Below, in pieces: positions 2,832 through 4,615 of a stretch of DNA of 64,000 nt. Every line of letters begins with the position of its first letter. Position 1 is the first letter of the stretch. Source of the stretch: an uncultured Verrucomicrobiae bacterium (GTDB lineage: Bacteria; Chlamydiota; Chlamydiia; Chlamydiales; Rhabdochlamydiaceae); assembly GCA_963813135.1 (NCBI GenBank), contig CAWEXY010000021.1:142075-206074 (forward strand), given 5' to 3'. Under the pieces are notes generated by a model. It made no database searches. It saw nothing but the letters and a program-made list of their open reading frames with translations, and was not told where the DNA came from. The position numbers were made by a program, and so were the translations under genes.

Positions 2832-2867
2832 TTGAACCTCCTTCGCCTAAAGGCGAAGGAGGTTCAA
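2832..2867. terminator. Perfect 36-bp inverted repeat after mfd; terminator-like, possibly an IS200/IS605-end derivative
   Basis: TTGAACCTCCTTCGCC-TAAA-GGCGAAGGAGGTTCAA, starting 12 nt after the mfd stop. Confidence 0.6.
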
Positions 2868-3774
2868 CCTCTTGTTCAAACAGTAGAAGATGAAGCACCA
2901 ACTGCTATTGAAGAAACAAAAGTTGAGAAGGTGGTACAAAGAGTCCTGCAAGCTGCGAGCTCATGGAGTAAAGAAGCGCTCGCACTCTAACAAAAAGGAA
3001 TAGATGCTAGATCTTTCGATTGGAACAATATCCGAAGCTATCAAGATTTTACGAACTTAAGCATCGCTGCAACAGCACCCGGCATTCCCGCAAATTTTGT
3101 TACTGCAATTCAGAATTTGCTCCAAAAGGGTTTTTATCACCTTGTCAACAATACGGTCTTTGAACGATTGCCATGCCGCAATCCCATCCCTTTAGGGGTG
3201 GGTTAGGCAGGCCTGTAGTTGGTCTATTCCTTAAATCCTCGAAGAATCCCTTCCATTTATGGGAGGGTTCTTCAATCTAACGAGGCAGGAATTGTGTTAG
3301 TTTTACCTAACCAACCGAACTTCACAGACCTCGCGGGCAGATTAGGAGCTGCAAAAATTACCTCATTAGATTTATCTGGAGCCTCTTTATTTCATGTTTC
3401 CCATCACATTTGTGCACAAAAACATATGGAATCTCTCGTTCTTAGCAATACCAAGTTGAGAACTCTTTTTCGACCAAGTAAATATTCTCGTCGCACACAA
3501 TTGCAAGAAAGCCTCATACATTTAAACATCAGTGACAACCCCGATTTAAAAAATATTGACGCCATCAAGAACCTCTCAAGATTAACCAGACTGGACATCA
3601 GCGGCACTGGAGTGACCTCCCTGCCTGCAGAGATTTGGAACAATATAAATATTACTGTAGTGATGTAGGGTTCATAACACCTCCAAGAAATCGTTCAACA
3701 TTTGGATAGGCATGCTTTTAGCAGGATTAGCGCTAGTGACAGCCGTTGTTTGGAGAAGATGGGCCCGGCCTTGA
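2868..3774 (+). pseudogene. Disrupted LRR protein with C-terminal TM anchor, paralog of 17299..18405
   Basis: Frame reads VEKVVQRVLQAASSW (paralog VDAVVQRVYKEARAW). Lesions: TAA at 2988, 111-bp insertion 3165-3275, frameshift near 3660 before the TM tail KKSFNIWIGMLLAGLALVTAVVWRRWARP*. LRRs (LDLSG, LNISDN, LDISGT) lie in ORF 3219..3668. Confidence 0.8.
3165..3275 (+). mobile_element. 111-bp non-autonomous IS200/IS605-type element (PATE-like), copy 1
   Basis: Identical to 55091..55201; two subterminal hairpins; inserted after TTGAA, ends TTCAA, no target duplication; removal restores the host frame VFE|SNE. Confidence 0.85.
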
Positions 3775-3780
3775 TCTCTA

Positions 3781-3843
3781 CATAGTCCCCCACGGCGACT
3801 GTTGTGGGGAAGCTACGGGCTCCGGCCCGTAGCACGTTTTTAA
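3781..3843 (+). repeat. Structured two-hairpin repeat, copy 1
   Basis: CATAGTCCCCCACGG..GTGGGGAA-GCTACGGGC-TCCG-GCCCGTAGC-ACGTTTTTAA; near copy of 3886..3948. Confidence 0.9.
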
Positions 3844-3850
3844 AGAAAAT

Positions 3851-3880
3851 TTGCAAAAAAATATCCCGTCTTTGTATAAT
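3851..3880 (+). promoter_or_regulatory. Sigma70/sigma66-type promoter
   Basis: TTGCAA (3851-3856), 18-nt spacer, TATAAT (3875-3880); predicted start coincides with the start of repeat copy 2. Confidence 0.7.
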
Positions 3881-3885
3881 TATGT

Positions 3886-3948
3886 CATAGTCCCCCATGG
3901 TGACCCCATGGGGAAGCCACGGGCTCCGGCCCGTGGCACGTTTTTTAA
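3886..3948 (+). ncRNA. Putative small structured RNA or leader (two hairpins plus U-tract) upstream of the NYN gene; repeat copy 2
   Basis: CCCCATGG-TGACC-CCATGGGG and GCCACGGGC-TCCG-GCCCGTGGC then ACGTTTTTT; compensatory T-A/C-G change versus copy 1. Confidence 0.6.
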
Positions 3949-3958
3949 TAGGAAGTCT

Positions 3959-4615
3959 GTGAATCGTCAACGTGTCACCTCCTTTATAGATGGACTTAAT
4001 CTTTATCATGCAATAGCAAGCCTTCATCGCCCAGAATTGAAATGGACCGACTTAAGAGCCCTTTCAAAAGTATTTCTAAAATCACATTCTGAGGAACTTT
4101 CCCACGTATATTATTTTTCGGCTCAAGCAGAACATGTCGCGGAACAAACGCAAAAAAATCAAAAAGCTTATATTCAAGCTTTGAAACTTAGAGGTATAAC
4201 ACCTGTTCTCGGTTATTTCAAAAAAAGACATCGATGTTGTCCTTCCTGTGACCATCGATGGTTTGGACATGAAGAAAAAGAAACTGATGTCAACATAGCC
4301 CTTTTTCTTTTAGACCTTGCTTATCAGGATGCATTCGATCGAGCTCTTGTCATTTCAAATGATTCTGACCTTGCCCCTGCTATACAGATGGTTAGGAAGC
4401 GCTTTCCTAAAAAACGCATCACTACGATTGCCCCTCTCCGTTACTATCATAGTATCGAACTCATCAATGCTTCTTCTGATAAAAGTAAGATCCGTGTTGA
4501 ACATCTTGAGCGTTGTCCTCTACCTCTTGTTGTGGCTGATCCATCCGGCTTAATCTCCGTATCTCGACCCCATGAATATATGCCCTCTAACACCGCCTTC
4601 GCTTCAACACTATGA
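3959..4615 (+). CDS. NYN domain (LabA/DUF88 PIN-like) ribonuclease with a CxxC insert
   Basis: FIDGLNLYH, EEKETDVNIA and ISNDSDLAPAI acidic motifs; CPSC; GTG start at 3959 after AGGAAG. Confidence 0.9.
   Translation: MNRQRVTSFIDGLNLYHAIASLHRPELKWTDLRALSKVFLKSHSEELSHVYYFSAQAEHVAEQTQKNQKAYIQALKLRGITPVLGYFKKRHRCCPSCDHRWFGHEEKETDVNIALFLLDLAYQDAFDRALVISNDSDLAPAIQMVRKRFPKKRITTIAPLRYYHSIELINASSDKSKIRVEHLERCPLPLVVADPSGLISVSRPHEYMPSNTAFASTL

Follow-up and report, generated by a model that had tools for sequence, protein, structure and literature searches.

The locus at 3781–4615 of the window (the whole 64,000-nt stretch of DNA that was analysed) raises the question of whether a structured RNA encoded directly ahead of an NYN ribonuclease gene is only a leader of that gene or a small RNA that acts on its product. 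An initial annotation had described two ~63-nt copies of a two-hairpin unit, a TTGCAA-18-TATAAT promoter between them and an intact nuclease gene, and had proposed an RNA-regulated toxin of the type III kind or an attenuator. All of these elements were recovered (Table 1). The two copies (3781–3844 and 3886–3948) are 84% identical over 64 columns, and each folds into two adjacent hairpins (−36.2 kcal/mol for copy 1 and −37.5 kcal/mol for copy 2), with 0 of 200 shuffles equally stable; both begin with an unpaired leader of 7 nt, have an AA linker between hairpin 1 and hairpin 2 (the latter of 9 bp) and close with a U tract. As the annotation had noted, every stem difference between the copies preserves pairing, including two double changes (C-G/U-A in hairpin 1 and U-A/C-G in hairpin 2) and additionally two G-U/G-C changes. 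Hairpin 2 of both copies scores as a terminator, and the terminator pairs of copy 2 have probabilities of at least 0.99. The terminator-like end assigned to copy 2 therefore stands, while the 10-nt distance given for it does not: the GTG lies 12 nt beyond the end of the U tract and 21 nt beyond that of hairpin 2.

Table 1 Features of the RNA–NYN locus and of the adjoining insert (positions are those of the window)
Feature	Position	Strand	Remarks
36-nt near-perfect palindrome	2832..2867		3′ of mfd
Leucine-rich-repeat (LRR) gene remnant	2862..3668		Pfam LRR_8
117-nt structured dispersed element	3160..3276		TTGAAC...TTCAA ends; inside the broken LRR gene
Copy 1 of the two-hairpin unit	3781..3844	+	Promoter-less; fold z −5.4; model R1 match E 5e-9
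Copy 1, hairpin 1	3788..3809	+	
Copy 1, hairpin 2	3812..3833	+	
Copy 1, T tract	3837..3841	+	
Sigma70-type promoter	3851..3880	+	−35 TTGCAA 3851–3856, 18-nt spacer, −10 TATAAT 3875–3880
Predicted transcription start of copy 2 RNA	about 3886–3888	+	From promoter position
Copy 2, predicted ~60-nt small RNA	3886..3946	+	Fold z −6.1; covariation in 72 homologues
Copy 2, leader	3886..3892	+	Unpaired, ends in invariant C
Copy 2, hairpin 1	3893..3913	+	Followed by AA linker
Copy 2, hairpin 2 / intrinsic terminator	3916..3937	+	
Copy 2, U tract	3941..3946	+	
Likely ribosome-binding site AGGA	3950..3953	+	5 nt 5′ of GTG; outside both hairpins
NYN gene, 218 aa, GTG start	3959..4615	+	Intact ORF

The promoter matches the consensus at 10 of 12 positions. 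Single promoter-consensus matches occur at chance level (5 found versus 4.1 expected), though the position of this one is conserved across homologues, and its −10 hexamer ends 11 nt before the invariant C of the leader, the modal distance among those homologues. Upstream of copy 1, no promoter-like site was found, and only read-through could yield RNA from this copy. That its stems are intact and covaried is a hint of selection, though not proof. Homologues carry ATG at the position equivalent to the window GTG. A longer in-frame start at 3851 (TTG, 254 aa) was rejected, as it would cross the promoter and the RNA and as homologues start at the 3959 position.

The duplication, which had been read as a feature of the system, is a local event. 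Most homologous loci have a single unit, copy 1 sits upstream of the promoter and outside its transcript, and a same-genus genome (G275) has one unit at the same site, in the order mfd, unit, NYN, efp, with mfd directly before the unit. The RNA of G275 joins a hairpin 1 of the copy 2 type to a hairpin 2 of the copy 1 type, and the neighbour’s mfd has a Pfam TRCF match. Reading the window copies as a ToxI-type array is likewise ruled out, because the promoter lies between them. In one other locus (L005), a tandem duplicate includes the promoter. From their translations, we take the genes of the window region to be, in order, mfd (1–2820), the insert, the RNA and NYN, efp and an EpmA-like gene; NYN adjoins efp in 2 of 20 related genomes. 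Compared with G275, the window holds about 1 kb extra, made up of the palindrome, the broken LRR gene, the dispersed 117-nt element and copy 1. The LRR remnant, whose ORF carries a stop near 2986 and is further split by the 117-nt element, is absent at the corresponding G275 site. The 117-nt element is MITE-like, with 21 near-full copies in the genome (1.83 Mb, 82% complete), many of them nearly identical, and the palindrome, with copies at three places in the genome, belongs to a small REP-like family.

The product of the gene was confirmed as an intact protein of the NYN/PIN fold with a CxxC motif. It matches Pfam NYN PF01936 (E 7e-12, 46.6 bits versus a cut-off of 24.2) and, over 2–201 of 203 positions, the PADLOC model HEC-09 (PDLC04163; E 2e-49), while an NCBIfam search with it matched no family. 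The acidic residues D11, E106, D110, D135 and D137 do not vary across 62 diverse homologues and are all present in the window protein, and C94/C97, at the tip of a long β-hairpin, are at least 90% conserved among the same homologues. The best solved Foldseek matches of its AlphaFold model (pLDDT 95) are VPA0982 (2qip, E 1.5e-9) and the MARF1 NYN domain (E 3.5e-6); a sequence search of the PDB returned only 2qip (E 0.0045). The closest named homologues come from Chlamydiales/Rhabdochlamydiaceae and from Verrucomicrobia-labelled assemblies, which makes an environmental chlamydia the probable host. Taken together, these comparisons predict a LabA/DUF88-like, metal-dependent endoribonuclease of the HEC-09 clade. 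The reported absence of an adjacent protein antitoxin was borne out more widely, in that 233 flanking ORFs yielded no conserved protein partner (largest cluster, 4). Among the 99 of these 233 ORFs that were scanned, no defence-island context was found; most are housekeeping genes, and some encode transposases or integrases.

To describe the RNA across the family, we pooled 30 chlamydial loci, the best 80 of 566 loci from species genomes, 75 viral loci and 5 plasmid loci, removed 7 in which the protein or the flanks were short and clustered the rest at 90% identity into 146 non-redundant loci, which were scanned with a descriptor for two adjacent hairpins and a U tract ending at most 60 nt from the start codon. 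An NYN match is carried by 46 of 401 genomes of the phylum, in a patchy distribution. In all 30 of the best chlamydial loci, that of the window included, a promoter, a two-hairpin unit and a U tract lie directly 5′ of the start codon, and the descriptor was positive at 113 of the 146 loci, compared with 3 of 115 genes other than NYN from those loci, although its thresholds were chosen after the loci had been seen, so that the out-of-sample tests below weigh more. The outcome that was to count against the proposal, homologues without upstream structure, was thus not what we found. One of the 113 positives (L098) is actually an inverted locus; the 33 misses comprise 10 inverted loci, 4 with a covariance-model match and 19 others, most of which, by eye, have two hairpins with a weak tail or different spacing. 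Exceptions include a degenerate RNA (L070) and, ahead of genes that look intact, a single hairpin (L161) and no hairpin at all (L119). Record titles cover at least 12 phylum labels.

Out of sample, covariance model R1, built without viral loci, was run on the 75 viral loci (416 kb), where each of its 24 matches at E<0.01, several of them near-copies, lies just upstream of an NYN gene. Among 151 genomes of an alphaproteobacterial order, the unit was present at 9 of 10 full-length NYN genes (7 forward, 2 inverted; one of the ten is in the seed, and three partial matches lie outside the count), the remaining gene (L267) having no recognisable unit; of the 7 R1 matches in these genomes 5 precede NYN, and the 2 weakest resemble ordinary terminators. 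The unit is confined to the upstream side, a downstream scan giving 7 and 11 of 114 versus 98. RNA similarity tracks protein similarity (Mantel r 0.40, 0/999), as for a module inherited whole, and the RNA with its NYN gene is best explained, on these comparisons, as a self-contained, horizontally moving two-part module.

Several loci depart from the common form. A member of a more distant NYN subfamily (L272, G422:C10:5488) has a promoter, two hairpins and a U tract upstream of the gene, which may extend the RNA association beyond the HEC-09 clade. In a Campylobacterota clade (L089, L092, L106, L122), the unit lacks a U tract and ends 3–6 nt before the start codon, where it may act on translation. 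Two enterobacterial plasmids of 3.5–4.2 kb (L032:1340–1420 and L035) have NYN as their main cargo, with a longer variant hairpin and a terminator upstream, and this cargo is consistent with an addiction or defence role.

Covariation was assessed on the collected homologues. In an alignment of 72 copies made from sequence only, double changes occur at all 16 of 16 pairs, and 87.5% of cells pair, versus 68.9% when shuffled and 33–43% when slid, figures that are inflated by the selection of rows with the hairpin descriptor; RNAalifold recovered 11 of the 16 pairs from the homologues. G-U pairs are frequent in the stems, whose sequence is free, whereas the letters that are conserved lie in the leader, which is unpaired and has the consensus AUCAUCC with one invariant C, and at the base of hairpin 1. 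The distance from the end of a TAnnnT hexamer to the invariant C is 11 nt in 28 of 80 loci and 10–12 nt in 47 of 80, and the full −35/−10 pattern lies at the expected position in 40 of 80 loci, compared with 5–11 of 80 at shifted positions. This conserved promoter position places the predicted start 4–6 nt before the invariant C and implies an RNA of about 60 nt. No pseudoknot or kissing-loop signal was detected in 106 units (loop–loop complementarity 2.07 nt versus 1.96 nt shuffled), in which leader–loop and loop–tail complementarity were also at chance level.

The unit does not correspond to a catalogued RNA. Rfam gave no family for it in the window region at E≤5 (best overlap, a nematode sRNA at E 3.4) and only tRNAs at gathering score in 20 homologous loci. 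A literature search found no description of an RNA tied to NYN genes, which subscription papers or supplements could list, and no paper combining NYN with “RNA antitoxin”. NYN is not mentioned in the main texts of 10.64898/2026.09.22.753630, PMC12737573 or PMC8040213, the supplement of the last of which could list the motif, and its single mention in PMC10910872 is unrelated. On this comparative evidence, the RNA is a real, widespread and uncatalogued predicted small RNA, tightly tied to NYN ribonucleases of the HEC-09 clade.

How such an RNA might act is indicated by loci in which it is displaced from its usual place. In 11 of the 146 loci the entire promoter–RNA–terminator cassette is inverted, with both hairpins and the leader retained; most of these loci have, by eye, a reverse TTGAC/TTGAT-type −35 where NYN begins (a stricter scripted pattern overlooked the majority of the inverted promoters). 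A quick tree, with 24 rows uncounted, requires 5 changes of orientation, at least 2 of them forced by well-supported branches, in a final count made without five long-branch or frameshifted rows (L072, L028, L075, L176, L158). Seven of the 146 loci (L059, L067, L087, L107, L118, L120, L133) instead have, about 190 nt upstream of NYN, three units arrayed behind a single promoter, and fall in a clade with support 95 that also holds four single-unit loci. Read by eye, the units of an array differ in sequence and keep shape and leader, and only the last is U-tailed, so that the inner units retain hairpin 2 where termination is unnecessary.

The RNA also occurs apart from an intact gene. Across 91 genomes of the family, 43 RNA matches were found in 22 genomes, of which 29 precede NYN or a remnant of it (one judged by eye) and 14 are without NYN, several of these keeping the promoter. 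Metagenomes gave 21 pattern matches, 2 by chance and 19 true, the latter standing before an intact or contig-cut gene (10), a frameshifted gene (3), a remnant start (3) or nothing (3). Internal stops were seen in six of the loci up to L115, and some NYN frameshifts and internal stops may be assembly errors. In L070, a single anecdote, an intact NYN with a degenerate RNA is followed just downstream by an intact RNA before a frameshifted paralogue. Two orphan copies lie in the source genome (C13:76288–76350 and C18:55629–55694), one with a promoter before what we take to be a putA-like gene and one directly behind what is presumably a GNAT toxin–antitoxin-like pair. Inversion, arrays, orphan RNAs and L070 together point to action of the RNA in trans, and the arrays are candidates for processing by the NYN nuclease.

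We therefore favour, at a probability of roughly 0.6, a trans-acting RNA that binds and inhibits the NYN RNase, a type III toxin–antitoxin-like arrangement in the style of AbiF and not a pure attenuator; the pair is probably a new variant of RNA-antitoxin system. From the promoter, a ~60-nt RNA would be made in abundance, consisting of a leader with (A/G)UCC at its end, hairpins 1 and 2 joined by a 1–3-nt linker, and a U tail, while NYN mRNA, judging by the anatomy of the locus, would form only through leaky read-through of hairpin 2, leaving the RNA in excess. The shape of the RNA and its conserved unpaired leader would bind the RNase and keep it inactive until transcription stops upon phage takeover, stress or loss of the element, when, by analogy with AbiF and ToxIN, the RNA would decay and the freed RNase cut cellular RNA. 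Where relatives carry arrays, the precursor is probably cleaved by the RNase at each repeat of the leader, releasing single units. One member of HEC-09, an Hma-embedded candidate defence gene described as a lone NYN protein, is reported to have given no protection against any phage tested (10.1101/2024.01.29.577857); as this result stands beside neighbours that are mostly housekeeping genes, addiction is as plausible as defence. What speaks against an inhibited toxin is that the one characterised bacterial NYN we found described is CRISPR-linked and reported to be an Asp-dependent processing RNase, not a toxin (10.1101/2024.04.08.588522). A bolder extension, which we consider quite improbable, is that NYN and its RNA make up a widespread ribonucleoprotein family, so far unrecognised, whose PIN fold has independently followed the path from AbiF to Cas13; single units would serve as antitoxins, and NYN would process the arrays into separate RNAs that respond to different triggers or guide cleavage, as a primitive array-programmed RNase.

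The inhibitor reading has to be weighed against a leader that works only in cis, in which hairpin 1 shields the 5′ end, hairpin 2 is a leaky terminator limiting a mildly harmful RNase (perhaps with NYN cutting its own leader as feedback) and the short RNA itself does nothing. An ordinary terminator indeed makes up half of the RNA, so that some of its conservation would be seen at any attenuated gene; the forward layout is more frequent than any other, and hairpin 2 forms a strong terminator at a median of 19 nt (3–42 nt, 107 units) before the inferred start. With the terminator blocked, 61 of 107 units can adopt a different pairing that is more than 3 kcal/mol better than hairpin 1 alone, but in none of the 107 does another fold approach the terminated one to within 5 kcal/mol, so that no switch is apparent and a riboswitch-like antiterminator was rejected. 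Inverted cassettes, moreover, are unable to attenuate an NYN message and yet keep their hairpins and leader, as inner array units keep hairpin 2. These forms disfavour the pure attenuator that the annotation had offered as an option, and we regard a cis-only leader as unlikely. We are similarly doubtful that the RNA is a cofactor, sensor or guide, whether by activating NYN, by directing it to a target or by permitting its action once a phage molecule is met. Inversion and arrays are the same trans-acting signatures under this idea, hairpin 1 varies freely in sequence even within one array while leader and shape are kept, and the DUF3800 RNA motifs are reported to be likewise tied to one protein family in either orientation (PMC5737381), but the variable parts are base-paired stems with no long single-stranded guide, and orphan RNAs beside decayed genes suit an antidote better.

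Mechanisms that dispense with contact between RNA and protein fare worse. Interference by the strong RNA promoter, limiting NYN expression, would fit the reverse −35 that overlaps the NYN start or ribosome-binding region in inverted loci, whereas type I-like pairing with the NYN message sits badly with an RNA that in forward loci is sense to that message and closed in stable stems; since such DNA-level or antisense control leaves the invariant leader C and the arrays unexplained, we hold it to be very improbable. Least probable of all is a DNA element (a REP, an IS200/IS605-type end or a cassette attachment site) that mobilises the NYN gene, despite the orphan copies (two in the source genome), up to 7 matches per genome in the family, insertion sites that vary and a hairpin 2 that, as we take it, resembles IS200/IS605 ends. 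The unit is bounded exactly by promoter and U tract, it is found on one side of the gene only, its G-U pairs are frequent and no recombinase is linked to it. Copies are also few, with four in the 1.8-Mb source genome, one each in 4 of 5 distant genomes and none in the fifth. The genome-wide REP or IS-end repeat, which the annotation had named as an outcome that would undo its proposal, was therefore not observed, and with 29 of the 43 family-wide matches preceding NYN or a remnant we reject a genome-wide REP, MITE or IS end.

If the inhibitor reading is true, its consequences reach beyond this locus. In the literature found, toxins with an RNA antitoxin are of the MazF-like (ToxIN group; PMC3401426), HEPN (AbiF; 10.1101/2025.04.15.648962) and deaminase (AvcID) kinds, and PIN-fold toxins are described with protein antitoxins (PMC5499597), so that a PIN/NYN RNase held by a 60-nt RNA would constitute a new type III class, whose range takes in at least 12 phyla as well as prophages and small plasmids. 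A testable function would follow for a large family (4241 clusters match the window NYN at E≤0.001) in which NYN.COG1432 (LabA-like) is listed as “function unknown” (PMC5499597), and there would be a hint as to why the lone-gene HEC-09 assay was uninformative. The terms “non-coding” and “ncRNA” do not occur in the main text of the HEC-09 paper (10.1101/2024.01.29.577857). Cultured hosts carry forward, inverted and variant forms, the module being present in Paracoccus (L050, L055), Chelativorans (L054), Methylobacterium nodulans (L031) and, inverted, Methylorubrum extorquens AM1 (L034), and the RNA is tiny and the protein 218 aa.

Among known systems, the window NYN shares its fold and acidic active site with LabA-like NYN.COG1432, the CRISPR-associated NYN of Bacteroides fragilis and the MARF1 NYN. 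VapBC and other PIN-domain type II systems also share both, but VapC has a protein antitoxin, whereas NYN has none conserved. The DUF3800-I to XI, drum and skipping-rope motifs are described as terminator-ended RNAs that accompany one protein family in either orientation, with function unknown (PMC5737381); theirs is a protein family other than NYN, the window RNA matches no Rfam family, and NYN, LabA, DUF88 and COG1432 are absent from the main text of that report, the supplement of which could list the motif. With respect to toxin–antitoxin systems of type III, the window locus has a promoter, a non-coding RNA and a terminator before the gene and, in keeping with the 233 flanking ORFs, no protein antitoxin.

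The type III-like core of the initial proposal survives every comparative test, its closest counterpart being AbiF/RCd22 and not, as had been suggested, ToxIN, CptIN or TenpIN. The latter are reported to have tandem repeats that fold as pseudoknots and a Kid/MazF-related toxin (PMC3401426). The NYN loci share with them RNA unit(s) and a terminator before an RNase gene, a patchy and mobile distribution and, in one NYN clade, arrays; they differ in that most have one unit of two plain hairpins, in which no sign of a pseudoknot was seen, and in that the cassette has been inverted repeatedly. A tandem array before a separate terminator is absent from the window and confined to the 7 array loci of the 146, and the window fold is NYN/PIN instead of Kid/MazF-related. 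AbiF/RCd22 of Clostridioides difficile is described as a promoter, a short hairpin RNA, an intrinsic terminator and an RNase gene reached by read-through (10.1101/2025.04.15.648962; PMC12737573), in which RCd22 neutralises the AbiF toxin in cis and in trans by RNA–protein binding (10.1101/2025.04.15.648962). This layout (abiF motif RF03085; AbiF–AbiFr) is the same as the one predicted for the NYN module. The AbiF toxin is a HEPN (Abi_2) protein, however, whereas the window toxin candidate has an NYN/PIN fold without such a Pfam match, and the window RNA matches neither RF03085 nor any other Rfam family. We thus regard AbiF/RCd22 as the best analogue of the putative NYN–RNA module, which would work like AbiF and the ToxIN group and, because of its NYN/PIN fold, the lack of a pseudoknot and the exceptional nature of its arrays, is a member of neither.
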